DNA of 64,000 nt from Acidobacteriota bacterium. GTDB taxonomy: Bacteria > Acidobacteriota > UBA6911 > RPQK01 > JAJDTT01. Every line of letters begins with the position of its first letter. The first letter of the stretch is position 1. Below are positions 4,224-39,341 of the stretch, one piece after another. The DNA lies in contig OZ253580.1 of NCBI GenBank assembly GCA_965263035.1, forward strand, positions 4,224,001 to 4,288,000. Direction: 5' to 3'. The notes beneath the pieces are model-generated. The model made no database searches, had not been told where the DNA came from, and worked only from the letters and a program-made list of their open reading frames with translations. A program made the translations under genes and the position numbers.

Positions 4224-4254
4224 GGTTTCCTCCTGGAGACGGCGGCGGGTCGGG

Positions 4255-17063: not shown

Positions 17064-17238
17064 GATTGCCAATCCGCCGTCCATGATACTCGCTGGTGAG
17101 TCCGGCCTCGTGTGAATTGCGCCGCCGGGTTTCGAGAGTGGTCCTGCAGACCCAAAACGCCGGTTTCCCGCTTGCGCGGAAGGGGGCTTTCCTGGAGACT
17201 CGGTTATCACACGGCACAACAACGTAAGGTAGGAGTCC

Positions 17239-18462
17239 ATGAACCGAAGACGATTCGTCGGCTCGGTGGCCGGGACCGCCGGGTTGGCCGCCGCCATGGC
17301 ACAAAACGCTCGTGGGGAAGCCCATCAGGCTCTCTCATCCATGCGGATCACCCGGATTCGCTTCTACGAGGCCCCCTCCCGCGTCATGTTCAATCAGAGC
17401 TCCCACGTTTCGCTGGTCGAAACGGACCAGGGCATCGTGGGGGTGGGCGAAGGGGGATCGGAGGACACGATTCGCCAGTGTGCCGGCCTGCTCATCGGAG
17501 AGAATCCGGCCCGCATTGAGCATCTCTGGCAGCTCATGTACTGGGGCCACTTCTATCCGCCCGGGCGGGAAAAGATCCATGCGCTGGGTGCACTGGACCT
17601 GGCGCTCTGGGACATCCGGGGCAAAGCTCTCGGAGTCCCGGTCTACCACTTGCTGGGAGGTCCGGTTCGAAACCACATCGAGTGCTATTCGACGGGTTTC
17701 CCCGGCTACAAGAATCCGCGCGACGCGGCACGTGCGTGCATGGATGCCGGCTTTCGAGCCTATCGGACCAGCACTCGTGGTTCGGGCAACCAATTCAACC
17801 CTCGCCAATCCGTTCGCGACACCTACAAGCTGTGCGCGGAAGTGCGCAAGGGCGTGGGCGCCAGCGGCGATTGGGCCATCGACTACCACACGCGGCTGGA
17901 CATGCCCGATGCCATCCGGCTTTCCAGCCTCATCGAGGATCTGGAGCCCTACTTCGTCGAAGACCTGCTCCGCAGCGAGAACCCGGGCGTCTACCGGCAG
18001 CTGCGCCCTCAAGTGAAGGTGCCCATCGCCGTAGGCGAGCAGTTCGGCGACCGCTGGGATATCAACGAGCTGATCGAGGAACGCCTGATCGACTATTCGA
18101 GGATCTCCCTGCCCAACGCCGGCGGTATCACCGAGTTCATGAAGATCGCAACCTTGTGCGAGACCCACTACGTCGGGCTGGTCCCCCATTTCACCGGACC
18201 CATTGCCACTGCCGCCCTGGTCCATGCGTGCAACGCCTTTCCGGGACCCGTCCTGATGGAGATGTTGGGCGGCGGTAAAGAGGATCTGGATCACCTGCCG
18301 GTGAGCTACGACTTTCGGGACGGAAAACTCTGGCCCAGCGCCCGGCCGGGCCTCGGTGTGGAGGTCGATACGGAATCGCTGAAGCTGGTGGCCGAAGTCA
18401 CGGAGCCGCTGGAGGGTGCTCCCCTGAATCGGCGTCCCGACGGGTCCATCACCAATTGGTGA
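17239..18462 (+). CDS. Mandelate racemase/enolase-superfamily dehydratase with Tat signal
   Basis: MNRRRF; ALDLALWDIRGK..GVPVY.LLGG; D.H, E, GE metal ligands. Confidence 0.88.
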   Translation: MNRRRFVGSVAGTAGLAAAMAQNARGEAHQALSSMRITRIRFYEAPSRVMFNQSSHVSLVETDQGIVGVGEGGSEDTIRQCAGLLIGENPARIEHLWQLMYWGHFYPPGREKIHALGALDLALWDIRGKALGVPVYHLLGGPVRNHIECYSTGFPGYKNPRDAARACMDAGFRAYRTSTRGSGNQFNPRQSVRDTYKLCAEVRKGVGASGDWAIDYHTRLDMPDAIRLSSLIEDLEPYFVEDLLRSENPGVYRQLRPQVKVPIAVGEQFGDRWDINELIEERLIDYSRISLPNAGGITEFMKIATLCETHYVGLVPHFTGPIATAALVHACNAFPGPVLMEMLGGGKEDLDHLPVSYDFRDGKLWPSARPGLGVEVDTESLKLVAEVTEPLEGAPLNRRPDGSITNW

Positions 18463-22001: not shown

Positions 22002-24389
22002 ATGAGAAAATGTTCGTGGAATTTCTGCCCGCCCGGGGCTCGAATTCGTGATTCGGCGAGGCCGCCGGTCGTCTGCCTTGTGCTGCTGAATCTCTTCTTG
22101 TCGCCTCTGGTCACAGCGGTCCCCTCTCAGAACTCCAAAGTCGACTTTCAGCGGCAGATTCGGCCGTTGCTGTCCGATACCTGTTTTCAGTGCCACGGTC
22201 CCGATCCCCAGGTCCGGGTGGCAGACCTGAGGCTCGATCTGCGAGAAAACATCTTCCAGGCCCGGACCTCCGGAGTGCCCGTCGTTCCGGGAGATCCGGA
22301 CAACAGCCTGATCTTTCGGCGCATCACACATGAAGACGCGAACCATCGCATGCCTCCCGCGTACTCGCAAAAGAGGCTGAGCGACGACCAGATCGATCTC
22401 ATCCGCCGTTGGATCGAGCAAGGAGCCGTCTGGCAGCAACATTGGGCGTTCATCGCGCCGCGGCGGCCCACCCTGCCTCAGGTGAAGGACAACTCCTGGC
22501 CCAGGCAGGATCTGGATCGCTTCGTCCTCAACCGCCTGGAAGCTGAAGGGCTGGATCCTGCGCCGGCCGCGGAAAAGAGCCGGATCCTGCGCCGAGTGAC
22601 CTTGGACCTGACCGGGCTGCCGCCGACCTTGGATGAACTGGACGCCTTCCTCGCCGACCCGTCGCCCGGCGCGTACGAGAAGGTCGTCGACCGGCTCCTG
22701 GCTTCGCCCCGGTATGGGGAACGCATGGCGGCGGTCTGGCTCGATCTGGCCCGATACGCCGACACCGACGGCTATCAGGACGACGAGCCTCGAACCATGT
22801 GGAGGTGGCGCGAATGGGTCGTCGACGCGCTGAACCAGAATCTGTCCTTCGACCAGTTCACGGTCCAGCAGTTGGCCGGGGATCTGCTCCCTGAGGCGAG
22901 TCCGGAGCAGAAACTGGCCACCGGCTTCCTTCGCAACAACCGCGTCAACGGTGAAGGCGGATCCATCGCCGACGAGTTCCGGGTCGAGTACGCCGTCGAT
23001 CGCGTCAACACCGTTTCGACCGCCTGGATGGGGCTCACGGTCGGCTGCGCGCGTTGTCACGATCACAAGTATGATCCCGTCTCCCAGACCGAGTTCTACC
23101 GTCTCTTCGCCTTCTTCAACGCCATCTCCGAGCCGGGCACCTATCGGCGGAGCGCCGCGCCCACCATCAAGGTGCCGCCGCGGGCCGTTCAGCTCCGATT
23201 GGATCGGATCCATCGCGAACTTCAGGTCCTGGAGCGGAGTTCACCCGCGTACGCCGCGCTCGAGGCACAGCATCAACGCTTCTGGGAACAGGTCCCCGCA
23301 ACCATGATCATGCGGGACGACCAGGCTCGAGAGACATTCGTTCTGGGACGCGGACAATACGATCAGCCAGGGGCCAAGGTAACCCCGGGCGTCCCCAGGG
23401 TGCTGCCACCGCTGCCCCCCGGCGTCCCGGCCAATCGTCTGCTCCTGGCACGGTGGCTGGTGGATCCGGCCCATCCACTCACCGCCCGTGTGGCGGCGAA
23501 CCGATTGTGGCAGTTGCACTTCGGCTCGGGACTGGTGCCGACGCCCGAGGATTTCGGGGCGCAGGGGGAGCCCCCGACACATCCACTCCTGCTGGACTGG
23601 CTGGCCAGCGAGCTGATTCGACTGCAATGGGACAGCAAGGCTTTCCAGCGGATGATCGTGACCAGCGCGACCTACCTGGAGTCGTCGAAGCTCACGCCGG
23701 CACTGCTCCAGAAGGATCCGGCCAACCGCCTTCTGGCGCGGGGTCCCCGGTTGCGTCTGCCCGCGGAGATGATTCGGGATCAGGCCCTGGCGGTGAGCGG
23801 GCTGCTGGTCGAGTCGGTGGGAGGGCCGTCGGTCAAGCCGTATCAGCCGGAGGCCATCTGGGACGAGATCGCCGGCGGAGCGTCCGGCGCCTACAAGAAA
23901 GGCTACGAGCAGGGGACCGGCGACCATCTCTACCGTCGCAGCCTCTACTCTTTCTGGAGGCGCACCATCCATCCTCCCGGGATGGAGGTGTTCGATGCTC
24001 CGAGCCGCGAGGTCTGTACGGCCCGGCGCGAGCGGACCAACACGCCCCTCCAGGCGTTGACGCTCATGAACGACGTGACCTACGTCGAGGCGGCGCGTGC
24101 TCTCGCCCAGCGTCTGATCCGGGAGGGAGGTTCGACCGATCGGGAGCGGGTCGATTTCGGTTTCCGCCTGGTCACTTCGCGGCAGCCCCAGCCTGCGGAA
24201 ATCGAGGTGCTGACGCGCGGTCTGCAGCGTCATCGGTCGACCTACGAGAACGACCCCGAGGCTGCCCGGAGACTGGCTCAGGTCGGTCAGTCCCCTTTGG
24301 ATCCTGGGATGGACACCGTCGAACTGGCTGCCCACACGGCCCTCGCGAACGGCCTCCTGAACCTGGACGAGACCATTCACCGGGAATGA
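22002..24389 (+). CDS. Planctomycete cytochrome c/DUF1549/DUF1553 (PSD1) protein
   Basis: CFQCHG, CARCHDHKYDP, WLDLARYADT, TNTPLQAL; exact start uncertain. Confidence 0.88.
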   Translation: MRKCSWNFCPPGARIRDSARPPVVCLVLLNLFLSPLVTAVPSQNSKVDFQRQIRPLLSDTCFQCHGPDPQVRVADLRLDLRENIFQARTSGVPVVPGDPDNSLIFRRITHEDANHRMPPAYSQKRLSDDQIDLIRRWIEQGAVWQQHWAFIAPRRPTLPQVKDNSWPRQDLDRFVLNRLEAEGLDPAPAAEKSRILRRVTLDLTGLPPTLDELDAFLADPSPGAYEKVVDRLLASPRYGERMAAVWLDLARYADTDGYQDDEPRTMWRWREWVVDALNQNLSFDQFTVQQLAGDLLPEASPEQKLATGFLRNNRVNGEGGSIADEFRVEYAVDRVNTVSTAWMGLTVGCARCHDHKYDPVSQTEFYRLFAFFNAISEPGTYRRSAAPTIKVPPRAVQLRLDRIHRELQVLERSSPAYAALEAQHQRFWEQVPATMIMRDDQARETFVLGRGQYDQPGAKVTPGVPRVLPPLPPGVPANRLLLARWLVDPAHPLTARVAANRLWQLHFGSGLVPTPEDFGAQGEPPTHPLLLDWLASELIRLQWDSKAFQRMIVTSATYLESSKLTPALLQKDPANRLLARGPRLRLPAEMIRDQALAVSGLLVESVGGPSVKPYQPEAIWDEIAGGASGAYKKGYEQGTGDHLYRRSLYSFWRRTIHPPGMEVFDAPSREVCTARRERTNTPLQALTLMNDVTYVEAARALAQRLIREGGSTDRERVDFGFRLVTSRQPQPAEIEVLTRGLQRHRSTYENDPEAARRLAQVGQSPLDPGMDTVELAAHTALANGLLNLDETIHRE

Positions 24390-25867
24390 GAAAACCGATG
24401 GCTTCTCCCGCGCATCCGATCGCCAACGCCCGGCAGCTGTTGACCCGCCGACACTTCTTTGGCCGGTCGGGGATGGGAATCGGCGCCGTAGCGCTGAGCT
24501 CACTGCTGTCGGAGGACCTCCTGGCCGCCCCCCGACGAAGTCCCGGAGCAGCGGCCGGTGCGGCAGGCCTACCCCACTTCGAGCCCAGGGCCAAGCGGGT
24601 GATCTACCTGTGCCAGGCTGGCGGACCGGCCCAGATGGACCTCTTCGACTACAAGCCGGGCCTGCGGGAAATGTTCGACGTCGATTTCCCCGACTCGGTG
24701 CGGAAGGGTCAGCGCCTGACCACCATGACCTCGGGCCAGGATCGTTTCCCGTTGGTGCCGTCCATTTTCGAATTCCGCCGGCATGGGGAGTGCGGCGCCT
24801 GGGTCAGCGAGTTGCTTCCGCACACGGCCGGCGTGGTCGATCGACTCTGCCTGATCAAGTCGATGCACACGGATGCCATCAACCACGATCCCGCCATCAC
24901 GCTGATGCAGACCGGCTCCGAGCGGTCGGGCCGCCCGAGTCTGGGGGCTTGGCTCTCCTATGGGTTGGGAAGCGCGAACCGGGACCTGCCCACCTTCGTG
25001 GTCATGACCTCCAACTCCAAGAAGGGGTCGCAGCCGCTGTACAAGCGCTTGTGGGGCAGTGGCTTCCTGCCCACCCGGCACCAGGGGGTGAGGTTCCGCG
25101 GCGTCGGCGATCCGGTCCTGTACCTCTCCAATCCGCCGGGGATGGACAGCGTCACCCGGCGGCACATACTGGACGACATCGCCCGGTTGAACGAGTTGAA
25201 GCAGGCCGAGTTCGGAGACCCTGAGATCGCCACCCGAATCGCCCAGTACGAGCTGGCGTTTCGGATGCAGACCTCGGTTCCCGAGCTGACGGACCTGTCC
25301 GATGAACCGGAGCATATTTTTCGGCTCTACGGAGACGACGCTCGAGAACGGGGCACCTACGCGTCCCATTGCCTGATGGCCCGGCGGCTGGTGGAGCGAG
25401 GGGTGCGCTTCGTTCAGCTGTTCCACCGGGGCTGGGATCAGCACCGGGACCTGCCGCGGGACCTGAGGGGCCAGTGCCAGGCCACCGATCGGGCCACGGC
25501 CGCCCTGATCCTGGATCTGGAGCAACGAGGCATGCTTGAGGACACCCTCATCGTCTGGGGCGGCGAATTCGGACGGACCATCTACTGCCAGGGAGATTTG
25601 ACCAAGGAGAACTACGGGCGGGACCATCATCCGCGCTGCTTTACCATGTGGCTGGCCGGAGGCGGGGCCTCGGGCGGTCTGAGCTACGGCGAAACGGACG
25701 ACTTCAGCTACAATATCGTGAAGGATCCGGTACCGGTCCACGACCTGAACGCCACCATCCTGCATCTCCTGGGAATCGACCATCTGCGGCTGACGTTCAA
25801 GTTCCAGGGCCGAGACCACCGGCTGACGGACGTGCACGGCAAGGTGCTGAAACCGCTCCTGGCCTGA
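24386..25867 (+). CDS. DUF1501 (sulfatase-like) protein with Tat signal
   Basis: TRRHFF; GGP.Q.DLFDYKP, WGGEFGRT, GRDHHP; ATGA overlap with the upstream gene. Confidence 0.9.
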   Translation: MRKPMASPAHPIANARQLLTRRHFFGRSGMGIGAVALSSLLSEDLLAAPRRSPGAAAGAAGLPHFEPRAKRVIYLCQAGGPAQMDLFDYKPGLREMFDVDFPDSVRKGQRLTTMTSGQDRFPLVPSIFEFRRHGECGAWVSELLPHTAGVVDRLCLIKSMHTDAINHDPAITLMQTGSERSGRPSLGAWLSYGLGSANRDLPTFVVMTSNSKKGSQPLYKRLWGSGFLPTRHQGVRFRGVGDPVLYLSNPPGMDSVTRRHILDDIARLNELKQAEFGDPEIATRIAQYELAFRMQTSVPELTDLSDEPEHIFRLYGDDARERGTYASHCLMARRLVERGVRFVQLFHRGWDQHRDLPRDLRGQCQATDRATAALILDLEQRGMLEDTLIVWGGEFGRTIYCQGDLTKENYGRDHHPRCFTMWLAGGGASGGLSYGETDDFSYNIVKDPVPVHDLNATILHLLGIDHLRLTFKFQGRDHRLTDVHGKVLKPLLA

Positions 25868-26813: not shown

Positions 26814-28030
26814 TTGAGTACGGGCAGTAGCAGAATCGAGAGTGCTTCGCTACGACTCGCGCGGTACTTGAAGGAGTTCGTTGGCCTCCGCAGTACGACT
26901 GTTCGTGATGTCGACAAGTACGATTCCGTGCTCTGGTTCGACGAGATGCCGCAAACGGCGGACTGCCACAGTGGTGCCTGGACCGACGACTACGATCTGG
27001 CAAAGCCTTGGCTCGAGGTTCGCAAGCAAAAGTTCGAGAACCCGCCAGAGCCACCCGACATCACCGTGAAATGGATCGACGCCGAGGCTCTCTACAAGGC
27101 GACGCCGAGTATTACGCCACTACGTCCGAGCATCTTGGAGGAAGACACGGACATCGATCTGGGGGAGGGCGAGACACCGCCGCTCGTCGAGCGACCACTG
27201 GTGGACTACCCGGAAGTTGTCGAGGCGTATCGGGCCTTTCGGCCGAAGTGGGAGGCGTGGGCGGCAGAACATCGCCGTCGTGAGGCGGTGCAGCATCTCT
27301 ATGCTGAACTCTTCAGGCTTTATTCGCAGTTGCAGAAGCAGAGCGAGATCGTCGAGGTCGTCCTCGGGCTTGGCCTGATGGACTGGCGGGCTACGAACGG
27401 TGTTAGGTCGATTCGGATTCGCCGCCACGCGGTGGCTGGGCAGGTCGAGTTGACCTTTGATCCGGGTAGCGGTGTCATTCGCGTAGGCGCCCCCGGTGAG
27501 GGGACGAACCTGCGAGTCGAAGATGACATGCTCGAGGCCGAACTCCGACCTGATCGATCATGCTATGACGCGGTCGAAGCGCAGCTTGACGAGGTGGGTG
27601 ACGCGATCTGGGACAAGTCGCTCATTCATGCTCCGCTAAAGACCTGGGCGGGGGCACTCAGCCCCGACACGGAGTGGTCGGAGGGACTCGGTGCCAAGCA
27701 GTCAACTGGCAATGACCCTGTCGTGAGCTTTGCGCCGGCCCTGATCCTTCGCAAGCGCCTCCAGACTGGCATGGTCCGTATCTACGAGAAACTGATTCAG
27801 AACCTTGAGGACGAATCCGGCGAAGTGCCTCGCGGTTGGGGCGAGCTGACTGATGACGACTGGGGAAATGGAGGTGGGAAGGCTACCGGGCACGATGGCC
27901 GAGATGTGACGCCTGCTGGCGGCACGCCGTCACTGTCAGAAATATACTTCCCGTTGTTAGCTAACCGGGAGCAGCGGCGTATCGTCAATGCAATCGACGA
28001 CAATCAGGGAGTGCTGGTTCAGGGTCCACC
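26814..28030 (+). pseudogene. 5' part of an interrupted SF1 helicase-nuclease gene
   Basis: RBS AAGGAGG + TTG; ends N.EQ..I...GVLVQGPP, the first half of Walker A. Confidence 0.9.
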
Positions 28031-28058
28031 CGATCCGGTGACATACTGCACCACCTTT

Positions 28059-30143
28059 CTACATCGTTGATGTCATGAGACTTAACTGTGACGCGTTGGT
28101 ACCTCGCGGAACTCTTCTGCCGCTTCGAATGGCCTCGGCGGCTCGTTGGACTGCTTCAGATCCCAAGTCCGAGTGCCGAATCTGCCAGGGGGCCGTGGCC
28201 ACCACCTGCCGTGCTGGCAGGAGTTTGCGGGCAACCAGCTTGCGTACGGAACTGGGGCTGATTCCCAGTTGCGAAGCCGCTTCTTGCATGTTGCAGAATT
28301 CGTGAGGGCGTTGCGAGAAGGCTGGGATGCGCCGATAGTTGCGCAAGCTGCGAACACGAGTCTTGTTCCAGCTGTGCCCTCGTCCCGTCTTCTTGCCCAT
28401 TCGGTTCAGGATCCGGGCAATCTGATCGTCACTCACCTGCCGGGCCAACTGGCGAACCAACTTCACCACGTCCTCCTCGGTGCGGTAGCGATGGCGACCG
28501 GTGGCGTTCTTTCGTACCTGCAGCCGCGTGTGTTTGCCCCCGCGCCAGCGGATGATCAACTCCACCTCCCGCCTACCCTGATCCACGCTCGCAATGATCT
28601 CTTCAATCAACGTGCGTGCGATCCGCTTCTTGATCCGATTGTCGGTGACGGCATCGGACCAGAGCGCTGGAAACCGCTCGGCTAGCCGGAGCAGTTCCAC
28701 TCGCTGCGGTCCCGGCGAACTCGACCGCTTCTGCCCGATCTGCTCCAGACGGGACTGCACTTGGCGCACACTGTTCAGGGCTTCGTTCCACTTCCGCTCC
28801 AGCGTCGAGGCTACCAGCCGGTTCTCCGGGTCGACTGCATCGTACTGTCGCTCAGCCCGTCTTGCCTGGTAGCGCAACTGCTCGAGTTCGCGCTCCAGGA
28901 GTTCTCGTTTCAACTGGTCTCGCTCGGTGGCTTCCTCTTGCACTCGCAGAGCCGCCTCGATCGCGCCTGGGGAAACCACTCGCACGATCTCGCGCCCCAC
29001 GGCTTGGTCGACCCTGCGTCCGCCAAACGAGATGCAACCCGCGACGCCGTGGTTGATCCGCGCCCCTCGGCAATGGTAGCGGGGGACTCGTCCCCCAACT
29101 CCACTGTAGGCCACGTGCAGCCGGCGACCGCAGTGCCCACACAGCAGCAGACCCGCCAGCAAACTCTTTCCCGAACGAACGGCTCCCTTCGCCATTTTGC
29201 CTCGCATCTGTGCGTTGTCGGCCAAGAGGCGTTGATTCGCTTCAAAGCTCGTCCAGTCGATGTAGCCCGGGTGATGCTCCTTGAGCCAGACCGTCCACTG
29301 TTCCGGGTGGGCCCGGGACCGAATCCGTTTGCGAGCTTGACCGTCCTTCAAGTAGGTCTCGGTCCAGGTGCGCCCCCAAGCATAGGCCCCCGCGTACAGG
29401 GGGTTCTTCAAGACCCTCAGCACGCTGCTGTAGACGGGCCGCTTCCACACCGTCTCCCAACCCCAAGCGGTGTGTCGTCTCACGGGCAACCGGATCCCTT
29501 CCTGCCGATACCACAGAAGAGTCTGCCGGGCACTGCCCGTCTCGGAGAATTTAGCAAACACCCCCTGAATGCTTTCCTGCACCCGGCGGTCCGGATCCTT
29601 CTCCAAACATCCGTTCGGGTTCAGAACGAACCCCACTGGCAATGAGGTGTACAGTTCTCCGCGAGCCGCTTTGCTGAGCAGTCCCTGTTGGGCACGCTGC
29701 CGGAGCAGGCTCAACTCTGCCTCGCTCATCGTTCCCTTCAACCCGAGAAGCAGTCGGTCGTTGCTGAGACGCGGATCGTACACGGCCTCGCTGTCGACGA
29801 TCAGGGTCCGCGTCAGCGAGCACAGGTCCAGCAATCGGTACCAGTCGGCATTGTTGCGAGCCAGTCGAGAGGCATCCAGACTGAAGATGGCCCCGCACCG
29901 TCCCAGGCTGACCTCGGCGGACAAGCGTTGAAAGCCCACCCGATCGACCGTAGTGGCCCCCGAACGCCCCTGATCCTCGTCGATCACCTCGACTTGGTTC
30001 CATCCGAGTTCTTCGGCTTTGGCCGCCAGCCGGTATTGCACCCGGCCACTCTCCTGGTGGTAACGAACCTGCCGCAGGCTCGACTGGCGCACGTAGACGT
30101 AGGCTTGGCGTCTCAGGTGATCCTCAGTGATCTTTCCTCTCAT
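28059..30143 (-). CDS. Large serine recombinase (resolvase + recombinase + Zn ribbon + C-terminal HTH)
   Basis: YVRQSS catalytic Ser, DEDQGRSG, SRLARN, CGHCG zinc ribbon, coiled coil. Confidence 0.93.
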   Translation of the reverse strand: MRGKITEDHLRRQAYVYVRQSSLRQVRYHQESGRVQYRLAAKAEELGWNQVEVIDEDQGRSGATTVDRVGFQRLSAEVSLGRCGAIFSLDASRLARNNADWYRLLDLCSLTRTLIVDSEAVYDPRLSNDRLLLGLKGTMSEAELSLLRQRAQQGLLSKAARGELYTSLPVGFVLNPNGCLEKDPDRRVQESIQGVFAKFSETGSARQTLLWYRQEGIRLPVRRHTAWGWETVWKRPVYSSVLRVLKNPLYAGAYAWGRTWTETYLKDGQARKRIRSRAHPEQWTVWLKEHHPGYIDWTSFEANQRLLADNAQMRGKMAKGAVRSGKSLLAGLLLCGHCGRRLHVAYSGVGGRVPRYHCRGARINHGVAGCISFGGRRVDQAVGREIVRVVSPGAIEAALRVQEEATERDQLKRELLERELEQLRYQARRAERQYDAVDPENRLVASTLERKWNEALNSVRQVQSRLEQIGQKRSSSPGPQRVELLRLAERFPALWSDAVTDNRIKKRIARTLIEEIIASVDQGRREVELIIRWRGGKHTRLQVRKNATGRHRYRTEEDVVKLVRQLARQVSDDQIARILNRMGKKTGRGHSWNKTRVRSLRNYRRIPAFSQRPHEFCNMQEAASQLGISPSSVRKLVARKLLPARQVVATAPWQIRHSDLGSEAVQRAAEAIRSGRRVPRGTNASQLSLMTSTM

Positions 30144-30282
30144 CGGCGTCCTCCTTTTGCCCTCGCCAAGCCTGCTCCAGCAGCTGAGCCATCAGCCGCA
30201 GCAGTTGCTTCCTGGTCGAAGGGGGTAGCTGGTCCCACTCGGGCTGGTTGGGGGTTGCAAACGCGAACTCCTTTTGCTTCAT
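30124..30282 (-). CDS. 52-aa accessory protein upstream of the recombinase
   Basis: Own translation MKQKEFAFATPNQPEWDQLPPSTRKQLLRLMAQLLEQAWRGQKEDADERKDH; GGAGG RBS; below the ORF-track cutoff. Confidence 0.65.
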   Translation of the reverse strand: MKQKEFAFATPNQPEWDQLPPSTRKQLLRLMAQLLEQAWRGQKEDADERKDH

Positions 30283-30608
30283 GCCGTCCTCCGGGGGCAA
30301 CGTTGCCCCGGGTGGTCTGACAATCCGACTTCGACCCGAACGTCTCGATCAGGTCCAGAAGTTCTTGCAAGGCGCCGACGCTGCATCGCGGCTGGTCGTC
30401 GACCCGACCCACTGCCGCAGCTTCGGGCCGGCACATCCAGCGTGGGATCTTCGCGTGAGTACTGTCCGGTAGCCGGCAGGTGAACCACTCCCCACACTGG
30501 CCGTGACGAGGAGGCTCGGCCAGTTCAAGGTCTCGTCCGGCTAAGGGGTGAAAGGGGTAATGGATTCTAACGGAGGTCGCAATGTGAGCATTGTGTCGTG
30601 GGTTCGCC
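30140..30608 (-). CDS. DUF5372/Y4bD-like accessory gene body lacking its start in the integrated state
   Basis: Frame reads RHNAHIATSVRIHYPFHPLAG...IPRWM; no ATG/GTG/TTG until 30436; start supplied by 28044 on circularisation. Confidence 0.7.
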
Positions 30609-33600
30609 TGGCACCGGGAAGAGCCACACCATCGCCAACCTCATGTGCCACCTCCTCGCCATGGGGAAGCGAGTACTGATCACGGCGGAAACGGGACGTG
30701 CCCTCCAGGTTCTCAAGCGCAAGCTCCCGAATGAAATCCAGCCCCTGTGCGTCAGCCTGCTTGGGCACGGTGGCGACTCTTTCGCGGAGGTCAACACCGC
30801 AGTGCGTGGCATCACAAACCGGCAAGCCTCATACGCGCCGGGCGCATATGATGGCAGGATCGCGGAGATTGATCGTGAGCTTGACAAGGCCCGAAGGCGT
30901 CTCGCGGGGATCGACTCGGAGATCCGAAGTCTGCGCGAAGGCGAGACGCTGTCACATTCGCTGCTCGATGGCACATACGAAGGCACGGCCTCAGAGATCG
31001 GATCCAGGGTCGCCGACGAACGCAAGATGTTTGGGTGGTTCCGGTTGGCGCGGAATGCGAAAAATCATCCGACGATCTCCAATGCTGAGGTAGCCAGATG
31101 GCTGGAGATTCGCAGGCAGTACTCGGACGAGGAGGTCGCGGCCTCGGAACTCCAGATCCCGAGCACTGCCACTCTTACTGCTCCGGCAGATTTCGCGGGG
31201 ATCGTCTCGAAGGAGGCTACAGCACGAGGGCGCAGCAGCGAACAAGTGGACTCGCTCCGACAGCACCCAACTTTTTCGCCGATTCGTGCTTTACCGGCCC
31301 ACGAGCGAAACCATCTAGCCGACGATCTCAGGAACATTGAGGGGCAACGACGTGCTCTCCTAGGAAGACAAGCCAAGTGGTTGCTCACGGCGCTCGAACA
31401 GGTGGTCTTGGGTCATGACGCGAAGTGGCGTACGCTGCTCAATCTGAGCGAGGAGCGCATCGAGCAGATTGAGCCGCTGGTGCGTAGTCTCGGCAATCGA
31501 GTCGTGACTCGCCCTGAGGGGCTCGACCCGCGAACAGTACGCTCGGATGCGGAAGCCGTGGCCAAGCATCTCCAGGCCGGTGGCAAGTGGAAGTTGCTTG
31601 GATTGGTCACGCCAAAGGTACTCAAGGGACGAACCTATCTCAATAAAGATGTTCTGATCGACGGACAGCCCGCCGATGATGTGCAGAAGCTGCGCTTGGT
31701 GCGCGACGAACTCGACCTCGAGTTTGCGCTTTCTGATCTTGTGGGCCTTTGGAAGGGCGTAGGAGTTACTGGTATCTCGGTCGACCGGAGATTCTGCCTC
31801 GCCGATCTGCAACCACACGTGTTAGCCCTGCAGGGTGTACTCGAATATGGGGACGTCTGCACCCAAGCTGCCGAGAGCATGTCCCGCAAGTCCCCTCCGG
31901 TCCCGACGCCCAACTGGATCGATGGGGAAGCGATGCGGTGGGTTGATCTCGTCGTCGGTGCGGGCCTCGACGAGGCGCTGGACGAGGCAGAAGCACAAGT
32001 CGCAGTATGCGGCCAGCCCTTGACGCGACTTCGCGGTCTGCATGACGTCCACCCTGTCGTGGACGCGCTTCTCGAAGCGATTGCCGCGCGAGACGTGACA
32101 GCATACAGCCAATGTCACGAGCGTGTAGTTGCGATCGAACAGGCGCGGGAGGCTCAGTCTGAACGTAATCGAATCGAGGCCGCGATCAGGTTAGCTGCAC
32201 CTGGCTTGGCGGAGGAAATCGAGGCGAGCCTGAACGAACCGGTCTGGGATGATCGGCTTTCCCATTGGGAGGAGGCTTGGCGCTGGGCATGGGCTAACGG
32301 GTGGATCAAGAAGCGGTCCGACTTCGACTTCCAACAGCGGCTCTGGCGAAGGCGTCACGAGGTGGAGGCTAGCAAGGGCAGACTCGTCGCAGAGGCCGCT
32401 TCCCTCCGGGCTTGGAAGCACTTCTTCAAGCGTCTCTCACCGCGTGAACGCAATGCACTTAAGGGTTGGCGCGAGGCGGTGCGCGCTATGGGCAAGGGGA
32501 AAGGGAAATCCGCGAAGATAGCACGCCTGAAGCGGGAGGCGCGCAACTACATGGGTGAGTGCCGCAAGGCGATCCCGATATGGATCATGCCTCGGTATCT
32601 TGTGGCCGAAATGATCGACCCTTCGCCGGGTCTTTACGATCTTGTCATAGTCGATGAAGCTAGCCAGCTGGGCATCGAGAGCCTATTTCTGTTCTATATT
32701 TCCAAGAAGATCATCGTCGTCGGTGATGACCAGCAGATCAGCCCTGCGGGCGTGGGTATTTCCGATGCAAATATCGCTGCCCTTCAACAGCACTTTCTGC
32801 GTGATGTCCCGCACAAAGTTGCGCTCTACCCGCAGAGTAGCGTCTACGCTAACGCGAAGATCCGGTTTAACCAGAACATCGTGTTACGCGAGCACTTTCG
32901 GTGCATGCCAGAGATCATCCAGTTCTCGAACGACCTTTGTTACGCCAGCAACGGTACCCCGCTCGATCCACTGCGCGCCTACCCCGCTAATCGGCTTCAG
33001 CCACTTGTACGTCGGCATGTGCATGACGGGTACCGCAAGGGAAGTGCCTATTACGCACAGAACCCGCCAGAAGCGGAGGCGATCGTTGAGCAGATCTGCG
33101 CTTGCATCGACGACTCGCGCTACGCTGGCAAGACGATGGGCGTGATCAGTCTCCAAGGCGATACGCAGGCAAAGCTGATCGAGAATATGCTTCTCCAGGT
33201 GCTCGATCCCGAAGTGCTTGTAGAGCGTCGGCTCATTTGCGGCGATGCCTACGCATTCCAAGGCGATGAGCGCAACGTTATTTTTCTGAGCATGGTCGCG
33301 GCCCCAGGAGAGCACAGGATCGGTGTGCTCGCAAACGAGGCGGCCCGACAGCGTTTCAACGTTGCGGTCAGCCGCGCCCAAGACCAGCTTTGGCTCTTCC
33401 ATACGGCCGAGGTCGATTTGCTCAGCGACAGATGCATGCGTCATTGCCTCCTCAGCTACATGCTCGATCCCGGGCGGAAAGCGACGGATCCGGAAGAGCA
33501 GCGGTTCGACTCGAAGTTCGAACGCCATGTCTACCAGCGTATTGCCGAGCGCGGCTTTCACGTTAGAACTCAGGTGTCCGTGGGCGACCCGGTGAATCAC

Positions 33601-34674
33601 CGCTACCGGATCGACTTGGTAGTAGAGGGTATGCGAGGGCGACTGGCGGTAGAGTGCGATGGCGACGAGTGGCATGGCCCCGATCGCTACGAGCAGGACA
33701 TGGCGCGTCAACGCGATCTCGAGCGGGCTGGCTGGCAGTTCGTCCGAATTCGGGGTAGCGACTTCTACCGGGATCGCGAAAAGGCCATGGAGCCCGTGTG
33801 GTCGGAGCTTGATCGCCTCGGCATCCGGCCCGGCGGCGTCGATGACTCAGCCGCTGCGCCGCCACCGCCGAAGTCGATAGGCTCGCAGCGGCGAATGGAA
33901 GACGACCTAAATGAGCCCATAGCCGGTCCGCCGCCCTCCGAGTTGGTTAAGGCGGTGCCTACGGTTACGCGTATCCCCAAGGCATCGCCAACGCCGACGC
34001 ATATCACCGACCTGACGCCAGCTACCCGCAAGCCTATGGTTGAGCCCCAGGAAGAAACAGAATCGATCTTCCGTCCCGAAAATCGATCGCCTCCTACAAC
34101 CCGTGACCCGGTCACGCCGGTCCTCGATAGAGCCGAACCCTATATTGCGTTCGAAGGACCAGCCGGTCCGGACCCGCGGCACTCCACACCCGCCCGGGTT
34201 GCCGAGGGGCTTTGCCGAATCATCGATACCGAAGGTCCGATGCTAGCCAGGCGAGCCTACAATCTCTATCTGCGCGGGAATGGCATCGCCCGAATGGGTC
34301 GTCAACTCAAGCGTGCCATGAACAGGGCGCTTCAGCACGCCATTCGAAAAGGTCGAGTCGCCAAGGTGGACGAGTTGGGCACCGGTGGCCTAGTCAACTC
34401 GATCGTGCGCATCAAGGGTAGGCCTGCAACCATGCTTCGCGAGCGTGGTCCCCGCACGTTCAAGGAGATTCCGCCGAGTGAGCTTGAGCTCATGGCACGA
34501 AAGGTGTCGCAAGATGAGGGGTTCGAATCCGGCTCAAATGACCATCTTCGGGCGGTGGTCGAGGCATTTGGTCTTAAGCGCCTCACAGCACAACGGAGGC
34601 TTCGTTTTACCGACGCGCATGGCTCGACGGATCGTAATGTGAATGATGTGTTGGACGTCAGGAAACCGCAGTAG
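30609..34674 (+). pseudogene. 3' part of the interrupted DNA2/NAM7-like SF1 helicase with C-terminal DUF559/Vsr-like nuclease
   Basis: GTGKSHT, IVDEASQ, VGDDQQ, EHFRC, FQGDER, RFNVAVSRA, DS.FE, YRIDLV, AVECDG..WH. Confidence 0.9.
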
Positions 34675-34959: not shown

Positions 34960-37236
34960 TTGGCAAATCAATTGATCATCGGACTTTGGAGTTGGAATCG
35001 CCTGATCATTCTGGGCGCCGTTTTGGCGCTGGCCGGCTGCGGCCGGGGTGGCTCGGAGAAGGGAACTGCACCTTACGGGCTGACTGAGAGGACCCTCTGG
35101 AATACCTCGCGGGTCGTTGGATCTCCCGAACCCCCGCCGCCGTACCAGCTCCGGCGCGTCTTTCCGCAGTACACCTTCGAGAATCCGACCTTCATCGCTC
35201 AGGACCCGAACTCGGAGCGGCTGTTGGTCGCCGAGTACGAGGGCCGGATCTACAGCTTCCAGGGGAACGATCCCGATGCCGGGAAAGACCTCTTCCTGGA
35301 CTGGAACCGCCGGGTTTCGGCCTTTTCCTTCCATCCGCGGTACCGCGACAACGGCCAGGTGTTCGTCTTCAGCCCGACCGACCCCAAGCTGGAAGGCAAG
35401 AAGGATGAAGAGGGCAACCCGGTCACACAGCTCAGCCGGGTCTCCAGGTTCGAGTTGGAACCGGGAAGCGCTCCGCCGCGGCTGCGTCCCGAATCGGAGA
35501 AGGTCATCATCCAGTGGCCGGCCGGTGGGCACAACGGCGGCGAAGCCATCATCGGTCCGGACGGGTACCTCTACGTTGCCACCGGAGACGGCACCGGATC
35601 CGCCGACCGCGACGATACCGGTCAGGATCTGGATGATCTGCTGGCGGTCATGATGCGGCTCGACGTGGAGCGGCCGGACCCCGGCCGGGCCTATTCCATC
35701 CCCGAGGACAATCCCTTCGTCGGCGTGCCCGGGGCCCGGGAAGAGATCTGGGCCTACGGCTTTCGCAATCCGTGGCGGTTCAGCTTCGATCCCGTCTCCG
35801 GTCGGCCCTGGGTGGGAGACGTGGGACAGGATCTCTGGGAGCTCATCGAGCTGGTCAGCCGGGGGAGCAATCACGGCTGGAGCCTCATGGAGGGCTCGCA
35901 CCCGTTCCATCCCAATACGAAGCCGGGTCCGACGCCGATCGTCCCGCCCGTCATGGAGCATCACCACCGGGAGAGCCGATCCATCACCGGCGGCTACGTT
36001 TACCAGGGAGACAAGTTCCCGGAGCTCCGAGGGGCCTACCTCTACGGGGACTACCAGTACGGCAAGATGTGGGGGCTGCGGTACGACCACGATGGGAAGG
36101 AGGTGGTCTGGCGCCAGGAACTCGCCGACTCGCCCGTCAAGATCGTCAGTTTCGGCCAGGGACGGGACGGAGCTTTCTATGCGCTGGACTACGACAGCGG
36201 TGAGATCTTCGAACTGGACCACCGGCCGGCGCCGGAGAAGAGACCGCCCTTTCCGAGGAAGCTGAGTGAGACCGGACTGTTCGCATCGGTGAAGGATCAT
36301 CGGCCGGCTTCCGGCGTCATCCCGTATTCGATAAACGTCCCCTTCTGGTCCGACGGCGCCGGCAAGGAGCGGTTTCTCGCCTTGCCGGGCGAGACGCGGA
36401 TCAAGTTCGACGAGGAAGGCACCTGGGAGTTCGGCGACGGTGCGGTGATGGTGAAGTCGTTCACCCTGGAGACCGAGGAAGGCAATCCGGAGACGCGCCA
36501 ATTCATCGAAACCCGGCTACTGGTGAAGCAGGTCGACCGGTGGGTCGGATACACCTACGCCTGGAACGACGAGCAGACCGATGCCGCGTTGGTGGAGGGG
36601 GACGGCCGAGACCGGACCTATCGGATCCAGGACGGGCGGGCGCCCGGCGGACAGAGAAGCCAAGTCTGGCGCTATCCGAGCCGGGAGGAGTGCATGTACT
36701 GCCATTCCCGCGCGGCCGGCTTCGCGCTCGGACTGAACACTCGTCAGATGAACCGCGACCAGGACTACGGCGAGACCACGGACAATCAGTTGCGAACGTT
36801 GGATCACATCGGAATCTTCAAGGAACCGCTCGAGAAGACTCCTTCAGAATACCCGGCCCTGCCGGATCCTTTCGGGACGGAGGCGGACGTGGAGGCGCGG
36901 ACCCGGGCCTATCTGCAAGTGAACTGCGCTATGTGCCATGCCCCGAGCGGCGGAGGAAACTCCCGGATCAACCTGACCTACACAGCGGAACCGGACAAGG
37001 TCCGCTTGATCGACGAGGCGCCGATTCACGACAACATGGGAGTAGACGGCGCCCGGATGGTGGTTCCGGGCGATCCTGAGCGGTCCCTTCTCTACCGAAG
37101 GCTGATCGTACGAGGTCTGAACCAGATGCCCCCGACCAGCACCAATCGGATCGACGAGCGCGGCGCGGAACTGGTGGCCGATTGGATCCGGCACCTCGGG
37201 ACCGAGTCCAAGCTCACTGCAATGTCGGTGCATTAA
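34960..37236 (+). CDS. PQQ-dependent (glucose/sorbosone) dehydrogenase-family lipoprotein with cytochrome c motifs
   Basis: Lipobox LAGC; HNGG, YGFRNPWRFSFD, GDVGQ, SITGG; CMYCH and CAMCH. Confidence 0.85.
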   Translation: MANQLIIGLWSWNRLIILGAVLALAGCGRGGSEKGTAPYGLTERTLWNTSRVVGSPEPPPPYQLRRVFPQYTFENPTFIAQDPNSERLLVAEYEGRIYSFQGNDPDAGKDLFLDWNRRVSAFSFHPRYRDNGQVFVFSPTDPKLEGKKDEEGNPVTQLSRVSRFELEPGSAPPRLRPESEKVIIQWPAGGHNGGEAIIGPDGYLYVATGDGTGSADRDDTGQDLDDLLAVMMRLDVERPDPGRAYSIPEDNPFVGVPGAREEIWAYGFRNPWRFSFDPVSGRPWVGDVGQDLWELIELVSRGSNHGWSLMEGSHPFHPNTKPGPTPIVPPVMEHHHRESRSITGGYVYQGDKFPELRGAYLYGDYQYGKMWGLRYDHDGKEVVWRQELADSPVKIVSFGQGRDGAFYALDYDSGEIFELDHRPAPEKRPPFPRKLSETGLFASVKDHRPASGVIPYSINVPFWSDGAGKERFLALPGETRIKFDEEGTWEFGDGAVMVKSFTLETEEGNPETRQFIETRLLVKQVDRWVGYTYAWNDEQTDAALVEGDGRDRTYRIQDGRAPGGQRSQVWRYPSREECMYCHSRAAGFALGLNTRQMNRDQDYGETTDNQLRTLDHIGIFKEPLEKTPSEYPALPDPFGTEADVEARTRAYLQVNCAMCHAPSGGGNSRINLTYTAEPDKVRLIDEAPIHDNMGVDGARMVVPGDPERSLLYRRLIVRGLNQMPPTSTNRIDERGAELVADWIRHLGTESKLTAMSVH

Positions 37237-37304
37237 TGGACCCGGTGGAGCGGCGATTTCCAGTCGCCGAACAGGAGCAGCGATTTCCAATCGCCGACCT
37301 CCCC

Positions 37305-39341
37305 ATGAACGGTAACCCGACAAGTCTCATGAACTCGTCCTCACAACAAATGCCGAGTCTCCGCAATTCCGTCTTGAAGATCTGCCTCTGCCTGCCCTGG
37401 ATGCTCTTCTTGCAGGCCCAGAGCACCAGCCGCCAGCTCACCCCCCTTCTGGAACGGGAAACCCTGGAACCGGGGTTGCTTCATCATCTGCTCGGCGAAT
37501 ACCTGCTGTCGCGATCTCCACAATTGCCGCCACTCCCCAGCCGTCCCGAAGAGTGGACGGCCCAGGTGAACGACATCCGCAGGAAGCTACTCCGGGAGGT
37601 GGTCTATCACGGCTGGCCCCAGGAATGGGTTAATGCACCCCTTCGTTTCCGAGAGGTGGGAGCCCCCCAGCAACAGCGAGGATACCGCCTCCGCAAGCTC
37701 CTGTTGCAGGTCTTGCCCGGCCTCCAGATCCCGGCACTGCTCTACGAACCGACGGGAGACCGGAGTTCCTTGCCGGCGGTCCTCAACGTGAACGGCCACG
37801 TCCGAGGCCCCGGCAAGTCCGTCGAGTACAAGCAGAAAAGGTGCATCAGCCTGGCCCGCCGCGGCGTGCTGGCGCTGAATCTGGAATGGCTGGCCTGCGG
37901 CGAGCTGTCCCATCCCGAGAACCAGCACTGGTTCGGCGCTCATCTGGACCTGGTGGGAGCCAACGCCATCGGACTCTTCTACCTGGCCATGCGGAAGGGG
38001 CTCGACTACCTGGAACAGCATCCCCGGGCCGATCCTAAGCGCTTGGCCGTCACCGGACTCTCGGGCGGCGGTTGGCAGACCATCATCCTCTCCTCCCTGG
38101 ACGAGCGGGTCGCCGTGTCCGTTCCGGTGGCCGGCTACTCGGCCCTGATCTCGAGAGTCGAACGGCCGCAAGACACGGGGGACATCGAGCAGAACGCCAC
38201 CGACCTGCTCCGGGGTCAGGACTACTCGACGTTGACCGCCATGCGGGCGCCCAAGCCGACTCTGCTGATCTACAACGCCGAGGACGAATGCTGCTTCCGG
38301 GCTCCCTTGGTCAGGCCCTACATCTACGACGACGTCAAGCCCTTCTTTGGCCTCTTCGGAAAGGGAGACCATCTGGGCTGGCATGAAAACACCGACCCCT
38401 CGACCCACAACTATCAACTGGACAACCGGCTTCAAGCCTACCGGCATCTGTCCCGGCATTTCGGCCTCGGGGATTGGGACCGTGAGGATCCCGTCGATCG
38501 GGAGATCCAGAGCTATGAGGATCTGGTGGTCGGTCTCCCGGAGGACAACCTCACCATCCTGGGCGTGGCGCGCCAGTTGGCCGACAGGAAGCTGCGGGAA
38601 GCGGACCCGGAGGAAGGTCGGGCGGTCGAAGATGTCGAGGACCGCAGGGCAAGACTTCGATCGCTGGTGCGTTTCCAGCCGGTGGCAGTCAAGCATGGGT
38701 GGGCGCTCCACAACACCAAGAATCGGGGGGTGGAATCGTATTCCTATCGAGTTCACTTCAGCGACGGACTCGTTGCATCCGCCCTCTGGGGGAAGGGAAT
38801 CGCCACTGCGGAGGGCGCTCCAGCCTCGATCCTGCTTCTGGACGAGGGCAAGGCGAAGGCGGGCCAACGAGCCTCAGACCGGATCAACCGGGGGGAACAG
38901 GTGCTGGTGGCGGACCTGATCCTGACCGGGGAAGCGCAGCCCCGGAGGAGGAATGCGTCGGACTCCCACCGCTACGCCCAACTCCTGGCCACGGTGGGAG
39001 ACCGGCCGCTGGGGATACGGGCTTCGCATCTCCTGGCTCTGGCCGGATGGCTCAAGGACAATCACGCCGCGGCGGAGGTCCGGGTAGAAGCTCAGGGATT
39101 CCGGAGCCAAGTGGTGGCCCTGCTGAGCGCGGCGCTGGACCCCGCGGCCTTTTCGGAGGTCAGGGTCGAGAAGGGCATGAAAAGCCTGCGCCACCTACTG
39201 GCCAAACCGGTCCGCTACAGCGAGGCTCCGGAACTGTTCTGCCTGGGGCTCTTTCCTGAATTCGATCTGGAGCGCCTGGTTCTCTTGGCCCGACCCACCC
39301 CGGTGGATCAGCGCGTCGAATCATCGGATTCCGGAGATTGA
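37305..39341 (+). CDS. Alpha/beta hydrolase (acetylxylan esterase-like), copy 1
   Basis: TGLSGGGWQT nucleophile motif; exact start uncertain. Confidence 0.8.
   Translation: MNGNPTSLMNSSSQQMPSLRNSVLKICLCLPWMLFLQAQSTSRQLTPLLERETLEPGLLHHLLGEYLLSRSPQLPPLPSRPEEWTAQVNDIRRKLLREVVYHGWPQEWVNAPLRFREVGAPQQQRGYRLRKLLLQVLPGLQIPALLYEPTGDRSSLPAVLNVNGHVRGPGKSVEYKQKRCISLARRGVLALNLEWLACGELSHPENQHWFGAHLDLVGANAIGLFYLAMRKGLDYLEQHPRADPKRLAVTGLSGGGWQTIILSSLDERVAVSVPVAGYSALISRVERPQDTGDIEQNATDLLRGQDYSTLTAMRAPKPTLLIYNAEDECCFRAPLVRPYIYDDVKPFFGLFGKGDHLGWHENTDPSTHNYQLDNRLQAYRHLSRHFGLGDWDREDPVDREIQSYEDLVVGLPEDNLTILGVARQLADRKLREADPEEGRAVEDVEDRRARLRSLVRFQPVAVKHGWALHNTKNRGVESYSYRVHFSDGLVASALWGKGIATAEGAPASILLLDEGKAKAGQRASDRINRGEQVLVADLILTGEAQPRRRNASDSHRYAQLLATVGDRPLGIRASHLLALAGWLKDNHAAAEVRVEAQGFRSQVVALLSAALDPAAFSEVRVEKGMKSLRHLLAKPVRYSEAPELFCLGLFPEFDLERLVLLARPTPVDQRVESSDSGD

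Follow-up and report, generated by a model that had tools for sequence, protein, structure and literature searches.

A two-gene serine-recombinase element inside the Walker A codons of a helicase-nuclease gene

Large serine recombinases (LSRs), among them phiC31, Bxb1, A118 and SPbeta SprA, integrate DNA by a well-understood reaction in which dimers bound to the attP and attB sites synapse, cut the central dinucleotide, rotate and rejoin the strands; the recombinase alone integrates, while excision requires a directionality factor. Here we describe an element of this kind in a 64,000-nucleotide stretch of the genome of an Acidobacteriota bacterium (GenBank assembly GCA_965263035.1, contig OZ253580.1, positions 4,224,001 to 4,288,000 of the forward strand; hereafter the window, in whose own numbering all coordinates are given), where it splits a gene for a large helicase-nuclease inside the codons of its Walker A motif (P-loop). 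Like the LSR systems named above, the locus combines a recombinase with Resolvase, Recombinase and zinc-ribbon domains with a 2-bp core, imperfectly inverted attP arms and no target duplication. Unlike phiC31-type LSRs, it lacks the cargo of a phage or an integrative and conjugative element, is 2.6 kb in size with two genes, and encodes an extra C-terminal ~170 aa in its recombinase. Its attB also differs from known LSR sites, being a protein-motif coding run that occurs in many genes, mostly those of other mobile elements. According to Durrant et al. 2022 (PMC10083194), LSRs commonly target conserved sites inside coding genes, and 12.4% of the site-specific LSRs lie in one Mg-chelatase/ATP-dependent protease gene family.

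The skin/SpoIVCA and fdxN/XisF systems and the cyanobacterial interruption elements resemble this locus in that a serine recombinase is carried on a gene-splitting element whose loss would restore the gene exactly. Interruption elements are described in transposase, integrase, primase and recQ-type helicase genes, with the helicase-gene element in a non-differentiating Synechococcus (Hilton et al. 2016, PMC4874684). Unlike skin and fdxN, the present insertion is polymorphic among near-identical genomes and multi-copy, and its recombinase scores below the XisF cut-off. To our knowledge, nothing links the present element to differentiation. A further comparison is offered by inteins and homing-endonuclease elements, selfish inserts in the most conserved part of a gene and often in the P-loops of helicases and ATPases. 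Unlike inteins, the present element relies on site-specific recombination of DNA rather than on protein splicing or double-strand-break homing, and its host gene is inactivated unless excision occurs.

Small or cargo-poor elements with a serine recombinase and a circular intermediate are also known, from IS607 TnpA and from TnpX/TndX (Tn4451/Tn5397). IS607 TnpA differs from the present family in its reverse domain order and in having almost no target specificity, whereas the present family is highly site-specific. The TndX-like clade carries DUF4368 (PMC10083194), a domain absent from the present recombinase. The interrupted gene, for its part, is like PDC-S37, Hhe, Mokosh MkoC and ProA in having a superfamily 1 (SF1) helicase and a Vsr/MTES_1575-type nuclease in its C-terminal half; unlike Hhe and ProA members, it falls far below the NCBIfam cut-offs and is matchless over its N-terminal 400 aa, making it a relative and not a member. 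Within the open-access literature, supplements and subscription journals lying outside the scope of the search, we found no description of this family or of P-loop targeting by a serine recombinase, and none of a compact two-gene element, an extra C-terminal helix-turn-helix (HTH) or a family preference for the catalytic motifs of mobile elements.

The interrupted gene lies on the forward strand in two pieces. The N-terminal fragment (26814..28030) holds codons 1-405 and, from codon 406, its first two bases (CC); the C-terminal fragment (30609..34674) takes up the third base of that codon, continues to the stop and encodes an SF1 helicase core followed by an MTES_1575/DUF559 nuclease. Fusing the two gives 5283 nt, or 1760 codons with one terminal stop, and VQGPPGTGKS is read over the joint. 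At the left junction the sequence runs ...CAG GGT CCA CC (28023-28030 being GGTCCA-CC) and continues with CGATCCGGTGACA from 28031; at the right junction 30594-30608 is TGTCGTGGGTTCG-CC, followed by TGGCACCGGGAAGAGC, which begins TGGCAC. All in-frame joins that we tried within ~25 nt on either side are also open, and an open frame alone is therefore insufficient to fix the joint. It is fixed because the overlap of attL and attR is exactly two bases, the CC at 28029..28030 and again at 30607..30608 (the core dinucleotides of attL and attR, respectively, and the sole bases common to both junctions), because VLVQGPPGTGKSHTIANL is present at the joint position in all intact homologues examined, and because natural alleles of 1760 aa align with the join without gaps. 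When all junction pairs were compared by brute force, a single one, with an element size of 2578, restored G-x-x-G-x-G-K and placed the shared bases at codon 3.

The natural alleles are three uninterrupted proteins (P0260, P0261 and P0262, the full-length members of the 90% cluster of P0121) that carry 3, 6 and 5 substitutions, respectively, relative to the in-silico join, with zero gaps over residues 1-1760, an identity of 99.66-99.83%. P0262 is listed on a 6,396,855-bp contig of a related genome, and the window's own gene fragments (P0255 and P0256) on a 6,198,070-bp contig. P0121, found by a search with the N-terminal fragment, is intact and contiguous over the joint up to the end of its contig, at 99.57% identity over 1380 residues; compared with the fragments separately, it is 99.5% identical to residues 1-405 and 99.5% over residues 404-1380. 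A distant homologue (P0122) aligns with the join end to end, at 84% identity over 1-1760. Since near-identical uninterrupted alleles exist, the insertion appears to be recent and polymorphic and the target gene otherwise undamaged. An earlier note on this DNA had claimed a gene split inside its Walker A motif, precisely restorable and with no other lesion, and all of this agrees with the 1760-aa join and with the three gap-free alleles, 3-6 substitutions away from it.

In its present state the gene leaves two open reading frames (ORFs). The upstream one reads through element sequence to 28070 (418 aa). The downstream one (30598..34674, forward strand, 1358 aa) has a GTG start and begins V-G-S-P-G-T-G-K-S, a complete rebuilt GxxxxGKS Walker A; the motif is rebuilt because GGTTCG in the P arm of the element mimics the displaced B arm, GGTCCA. 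Such mimicry by the P arm is also seen in relatives of the element, where it yields ASPGVGKT, GSTGIGKS and CPPGSGKG. The nearest GGAGG lies 21 nt upstream of the predicted GTG start at 30598.

Pfam identifies AAA_11, AAA_12 and MTES_1575 (5e-30) in the C-terminal fragment, whereas the N-terminal fragment (~400 aa) gave no match in Pfam, PADLOC or NCBIfam scans. A protein search found helicase-nuclease homologues of ~1750 aa spread through many phyla. The earlier note had called the gene a probable defence gene. In favour of that claim, PADLOC matches it to PDC-S37 at 4e-64 (profile positions 797-1529 of 1550, in a library that gives no cut-off), and to MkoC and Hhe; on the other side, the intact allele P0262 reaches just 231.6 bits (1.4e-68) for ProA against an NCBIfam cut-off of 1500 and 135.3 bits for Hhe against one of 2000, both over the C-terminal half only. 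We regard a defence role as a fair guess that is probable and no stronger. The gene is flanked by a PSCyt/PSD1-DUF1501 gene pair on one side and a glucose/sorbosone dehydrogenase on the other. Its P-loop appears almost identical to that of IstB, the helper ATPase of IS21, in both DNA and protein, and the IstB-type NCBIfam model PRK08181 matches the intact helicase at residues 396-446 (4.6e-5).

The element itself (28031..30608, reverse strand) is 2578 bp long, counting one copy of the core (30607-30608), with a GC content of 62.2% against 63.2% for the window. Its junctions show a 2-bp overlap and no target duplication. The P' arm of attP (28031..28058) abuts the recombinase stop codon (28059-28061), which thus lies 28 nt from the element's right end, and holds the distal CATACTGC box; this arm is kept among ten P-loop elements, with the consensus CGatCC.Gcg.CATAaTGC. 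The opposite end is a non-coding left part (30283..30606), presumably the promoter region of a two-gene operon together with the P arm of attP, which lies at about 30581-30606 and has a GCATTGTG box. The two arms form an imperfect inverted match at 9 of the first 13 positions, the figure given in the earlier note, and at 15 of 26 overall. Among the P-loop elements the attP sites have inverted GCATTATG...CATAATGC boxes ~13-20 nt from the core, and the window's attB agrees with the 10-site consensus at the conserved positions near the core. Elsewhere in the 64-kb window, the GGNCCNCCNGGNNNNGGNAA pattern (a GPPGxGK coding run) has one match besides the split site, with 0.03 expected by chance. 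That match, at 29573-29592 on the reverse strand, is out of frame within the recombinase gene and is probably fortuitous, as one match also arose in 3 of 100 shuffles.

The two genes of the element overlap. A small ORF of 52 aa (30124..30282, reverse strand) overlaps the recombinase start by 20 nt, and its frame is conserved across the element family; in 35 aligned elements its product has a basic N-terminus and an acidic tail, with Q-L-x-L, W..L and an amphipathic LA.LL helix between them. In RefSeq records of plasmids, this ORF appears as a hypothetical protein that overlaps the start of the recombinase. As the sole other conserved gene product, it is a candidate accessory or directionality factor. 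We rejected a 98-aa ORF at 30140-30436 (reverse strand) as an accessory gene: its frame is not conserved in relatives, and it has no Pfam or PADLOC match. Scans of 27900-30750 for sigma-70 promoters, terminators and Rfam families found nothing.

The recombinase (28059..30143, reverse strand, 694 aa) has an N-terminal Resolvase domain (Pfam 5.2e-19, residues 14-163) followed by Recombinase (PF07508, 2.3e-17) and Zn_ribbon_recom (PF13408, 9.5e-9) domains. The extra C-terminal region of ~170 aa contains an HTH_17 (excisionase-like) motif, matched weakly at 1.5e-4. Across 35 aligned family sequences Y17, R19, Q20 and the catalytic S21 are invariant, as are the zinc-ribbon cysteines C335, C338 and C358, with C370 conserved in at least 90%. 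Matches in the PDB include the catalytic domain of a resolvase-family protein (3guv, 5e-7) and two structures of the SPbeta integrase (9dxh, 3e-6, and also 9dxd). Three features, the catalytic domain, the Recombinase domain with zinc ribbon and the structure of the att sites, suggest that this is a bona fide LSR, and together with the 2-bp overlap, the imperfectly inverted attP arms and the lack of a duplication they uphold the serine-integrase-type insertion proposed in the earlier note. Three other identities were considered and rejected. The best NCBIfam match is XisF (NF041201; 69.6 bits, 2.4e-19), far under the curated cut-off of 375 for that equivalog. A TndX/TnpX-like multi-targeting LSR is contradicted by the Pfam scan, in which DUF4368 is absent, and by the 14 elements in Walker A codons described below. 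An IS607-type transposase is excluded by the N-terminal position of the catalytic domain and the length of 694 aa.

The recombinase belongs to a 90% cluster of 41 members. For two of these, P0249 (one substitution) and the truncated P0251 (494 aa), the contig listed is the 6,198,070-bp one also given for the window's copy; P0242 (two substitutions) is seen on 7 contigs. The cluster also includes several truncated forms of 513 aa and frameshifted copies. This pattern looks like the behaviour of an active, decaying, multi-copy parasite. In a separate case, two related loci on the Chloroflexota chromosome OZ253449.1 (L077 and L078) have identical recombinases. The two lie 5.5 kb from each other, and each adjoins its own diverged copy of a DDE_Tnp_1_4 transposase gene, cut in both cases at the same profile position (331/435).

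The earlier note had suggested that P-loop codons may be a conserved target, and the relatives of the element bear this out, with targets that are mostly IstB-like. Besides the window's element, 13 related elements lie in Walker A codons, 14 in total, in metagenome-assembled genomes (MAGs), genomes and rhizobial plasmids; their LSRs are 39-54% identical to the window's, and the elements measure 2555-2682 bp. Five come from the best 80 of at least 561 genome loci (L001, L003, L005, L009 and L014) and eight from the 11 plasmid loci inspected (L081, L082, L083, L085, L086, L088, L090 and L091), while the remaining three plasmid loci are in the LFAGSD motif of an IS66 transposase. The target gene is IstB-like in 12 of the 13 relatives and a sigma-54-type AAA+ gene in one. 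For L001, L003, L005, L009 and L082, Pfam finds the IstB_IS21 profile from position 2 to 101/105 on one side and from 97/98 to 237 on the other; istA is annotated beside L081, L083, L085, L090 and L091; beside the recombinase of L088 the only such annotation is a truncated "ATP-binding protein"; and the IstB-like call for L086 comes from a reading of its flank only.

The crossover position is shared as well as the motif. In 10 of the 14 elements, the window's included, Walker A is in frame and the shared bases are nucleotides 1-2 of codon 3 of G-x-x-G-x-G-K; in the window, L082 and L088 this is the sole possible overlap. The core dinucleotide varies with the codon, being CC for Pro, AC for Thr and AG for Ser. 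The four other elements are L003, in frame with its core two bases further on; L085, with both junctions present and unequal cores (CC vs TC); and L005 and L086, with one junction each. Since relatives occupy this same codon in other ATPase genes, the landing site is probably the conserved motif itself. A caveat is that this Walker A target is mostly one ATPase family, with 12 IstB-like genes, one Sigma54_activat gene and the window's SF1 helicase.

Some of these loci have features of their own. L085, on plasmid pPs24235_1 of Paraburkholderia sabiae, has both junctions in an IstB P-loop; the point change in its core should block excision, and the element is probably immobilised. L086, on plasmid 2 of Nitrobacter hamburgensis X14, has its right junction in an IstB-like P-loop, with no left junction found within 1.2 kb, and in place of the small ORF it has one of 228 aa, annotated as a regulator of the LuxR family, which overlaps the start of the recombinase. 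The AAA+ target of L014 (positions 3800-5508 of that locus, on the Longimicrobiales chromosome OX639991.1) matches Sigma54_activat at 2e-13. This ATPase gene ends ~66 aa past the P-loop, with an rve/rve_3 (IS3-like) transposase gene just beyond, and so the target seems to have been a wreck already.

The wider family is large. A search with the recombinase protein returned at least 8000 homologues at E <1e-10, and a scan of one genome per species gave the at least 561 loci mentioned above, the best 80 of which are used in the analyses. These 80 come from Planctomycetota, Acidobacteriota, Gemmatimonadota, Verrucomicrobiota, Actinomycetota, Chloroflexota, Pseudomonadota and other phyla. Among plasmids, a protein search gave 924 places spread over 467 records, chiefly of Rhizobium, Sinorhizobium and Bradyrhizobium, with up to 12 places per plasmid record among those listed. 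The best 120 homologues are all ~697 aa long, many of them on contigs no longer than about the element itself (2.2-3 kb). Within P0004-P0120 a striking share have a longest contig of 2.2-3.0 kb, as collapsed repeats or excised circles would give.

In a blastn comparison of the element with the 80 loci, similarity lay solely inside the catalytic domain, and the element ends were therefore located via the target genes, by reading the DNA outside the elements by hand and by running Pfam on two sets of abutting ORFs. Targets were assigned at 50 loci by Pfam on the abutting ORF and at four (L029, L053, L063 and L073) by motif reading; both halves of the target were seen in 13. Group II intron reverse transcriptases are the most frequent target (17 loci), with the halves abutting at RVT_1 positions 77-80 / 79. 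Transposition genes follow, comprising rve-type transposases including IS21 IstA (9 loci), IS66 TnpB (7, halves abutting at ~45-47), DDE_Tnp_1-type (4), ISL3 (3), IS91 (2), IS66 transposase (1) and IS110 (1). The others are Walker A (5 loci), tyrosine recombinases (3, abutting at ~131-137, the LRH box), a TrwC relaxase (1) and a recombinase gene of the same family (1; L049). Mobile-element genes thus make up 53 of the 54 assigned targets; the exceptions are the ATPase of L014 and, outside that set, the window's helicase. The self-targeting case, in an Alphaproteobacteria MAG (L049:5528-8073), has one element within a same-family recombinase gene at NDRLLLGLK|GTMSEAE, the two sides reading NDRLLLGLK and GTMSEAEL; it follows that these elements may parasitise one another too.

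Three well-supported clades appear in a tree built from 76 recombinases (quick search in IQ-TREE, LG+G4, with SH-aLRT only). The window's clade (38 rows) has the layout of small ORF plus recombinase, the second has extra DUF5372 and HTH_32 genes, and the third lies almost entirely in intron reverse transcriptases. In clade B1 (L032, L042, L044, L059, L062-L069, L072, L073 and L077-L079), larger upstream genes replace the small ORF, namely one for a DUF5372 protein, one for a protein with HTH_32/HTH_28 and an ORF bearing the motif "RG(M/V)xAW"; the term DUF5372 was not found in open-access full-text literature, a search with the same scope as the one above. Target labels are clustered on the tree, requiring 32 changes against a mean of 48.4 when shuffled, and none of 200 shuffles reached 32. 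In the window's clade the recurrent site appears to be the Walker A of IS21 IstB. Because the helicase P-loop is nearly identical to that of IstB, the helicase site would be a secondary site that resembles the usual one, or else one ATPase target among several. The tree fits an ancestral specificity for the P-loop that has switched repeatedly, but is too weak to show it. Targets that encode a motif make sense for a parasite, since they cannot drift, recur in genomes and plasmids and, inside transposons, bring no cost to the host.

How the insertion could have arisen may be pictured from established serine-integrase chemistry, from which we infer the steps as well as the activity of the recombinase, the reversibility of the event and the role of the small ORF. 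Recombinase dimers would bind the attP of an excised circular element, on arms with the inverted GCATTATG boxes, and also the attB formed by DNA coding for G-P-P|G-T-G-K. Cleavage of both sites at the central CC would leave 2-nt overhangs; rotation of the subunits and rejoining of the strands would then give attL and attR with no target duplication and the gene split between bases 2 and 3 of codon 406. Run in reverse, the reaction would rebuild the gene to the exact base and would probably need a directionality factor, for which the small ORF is a candidate.

We think it very probable that the locus is a recent, in principle reversible knockout of the helicase-nuclease gene by a motif-homing serine-recombinase element of a large family. 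Several observations weigh against this reading. The multi-copy status rests on the contig listing of proteins and not on DNA at the sites of the other copies. Among the 80 genome loci, 26 are without an assigned target. P-loop targeting is unclustered on the tree: within the window's clade it turns up at no fewer than five scattered positions, and 5 changes are needed for the six IstB rows, a number that 59 of 500 shuffles match; the tree, moreover, is a quick search under LG+G4 without bootstraps. The window recombinase is the earliest, lone branch of its clade, and the nearest locus, only 53% identical, is too distant to indicate what its own sublineage habitually targets; closer relatives, with 60-94% identical recombinases, are represented by their proteins. 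Lastly, no sigma-70-type promoter was found in the element, although the sigma-70 consensus may not suit the host. The earlier note had left the choice between a recent knockout and a skin-like excision switch. A programmed switch in the manner of skin or fdxN, in which a domesticated element keeps the gene off and is excised under a defined condition, could draw on the in-silico result that excision would restore the ORF exactly in a gene without other lesion, on an intact recombinase whose best NCBIfam match is XisF (2.4e-19), on a conserved small ORF that could be the directionality factor, and on the serine-recombinase interruption elements described from cyanobacteria that do not differentiate, including one inside a helicase gene (PMC4874684). 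Nevertheless, we judge it unlikely. Skin and fdxN are fixed and vertically inherited, whereas here near-identical alleles are intact and recombinase copies have decayed: the insertion is polymorphic, with three intact alleles at 99.66-99.83%, one of them on a complete-size contig of a related genome that also lists same-cluster recombinases, and the cluster has truncated and frameshifted copies. Relatives over many phyla sit overwhelmingly in transposon and intron genes, as a parasite would, and the XisF score of 69.6 bits is far under 375. A fixed developmental switch is thus disfavoured; the recent knockout agrees with the uninterrupted alleles and the extra recombinase copies, and the regulated switch is unsupported, although excision as such may still occur.

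The knockout might instead be adaptive, an anti-defence or phase-variation device that reversibly silences a costly or self-harming defence nuclease or eases the entry of other mobile elements. Its precision and its reversibility in principle would suit such a device, as would a target that resembles anti-phage helicase-nucleases (PDC-S37 4e-64, MkoC, Hhe, ProA 1.4e-68). With ProA at 231 against 1500 and Hhe at 135 against 2000, however, a defence role in this host is unsupported; the gene stands alone between metabolic genes; the sole other target outside mobile elements among the assigned relatives is the remnant of a sigma-54-type ATPase; and Durrant et al. (PMC10083194) found LSR targets not to be enriched in defence genes. 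Taken together, these points make the adaptive account quite improbable. It is harder still to believe that a transposase-like serine recombinase of low specificity landed in the Walker A codons by coincidence. Multi-targeting LSR clades do exist (PMC10083194), and the family overall uses many different targets, but 14 elements lie in Walker A codons, with 10 crossovers at the same two bases of the same codon despite LSR identities of 39-54%; the GGNCCNCCNGGNNNNGGNAA run occurs only once elsewhere in the 64-kb window, against the chance expectation given above; and DUF4368, typical of the multi-targeting clade (PMC10083194), is absent from the Pfam result.

Beyond the recent knockout by a motif-homing element, a broader proposal can be put forward tentatively, as a possibility that we rate below even chances. 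It holds that these elements form an undescribed, very large and phylum-spanning family whose attB is the run of selection-fixed codons of a catalytic motif, among them Walker A, the reverse-transcriptase motif, the LRH box of tyrosine recombinases, motifs in the DDE region of transposases and the family's own NDRLLLGLK. They would be counterparts of inteins at the level of DNA and hyperparasites of transposons, introns and plasmids, with Walker A as the ancestral target in the window's clade. Because the P-loop is universal, they could drop into cellular ATPase genes as well, in this case that of a defence-like helicase, and because excision is exact, they would act there as reversible off-switches.

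Such a family would account for thousands of "recombinase family protein" annotations and for the split pseudogenes adjacent to them. It would amount to a layer of parasitism in which IS21, IS66, IS3, ISL3, IS91, group II introns, tyrosine-recombinase elements and relaxases are knocked out at their catalytic motifs, perhaps reversibly. That the coding run of a universal protein motif may be usable as an attB bears on how LSRs read DNA, and recombinases whose landing site pre-exists in most genomes would be of interest in their own right. For this genome, the event probably means that a large helicase-nuclease, similar to candidate anti-phage proteins, was lost recently and in a precisely reversible way.

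Elsewhere in the 64-kb window no tRNA genes were found. Upstream of the split gene, 22002-25867 (forward strand) encodes a PSCyt1/PSCyt2/PSD1 protein and then a DUF1501 protein, a gene pair typical of Planctomycetota and their allies, and further upstream 13893-17297 (reverse strand) encodes an OMP_b-brl_4/CarboxypepD_reg outer-membrane protein. Downstream, two paralogous genes (37182-39341 and 41689-43725, both on the forward strand) lie 4.5 kb apart and are 93% identical over 678 aa. Pfam returned one weak match for the pair, in the first copy (GCE_fung, 7.5e-4, below cut-off). Their alignment shows a GLSGGGW stretch, which we take to resemble the nucleophile motif of serine hydrolases.

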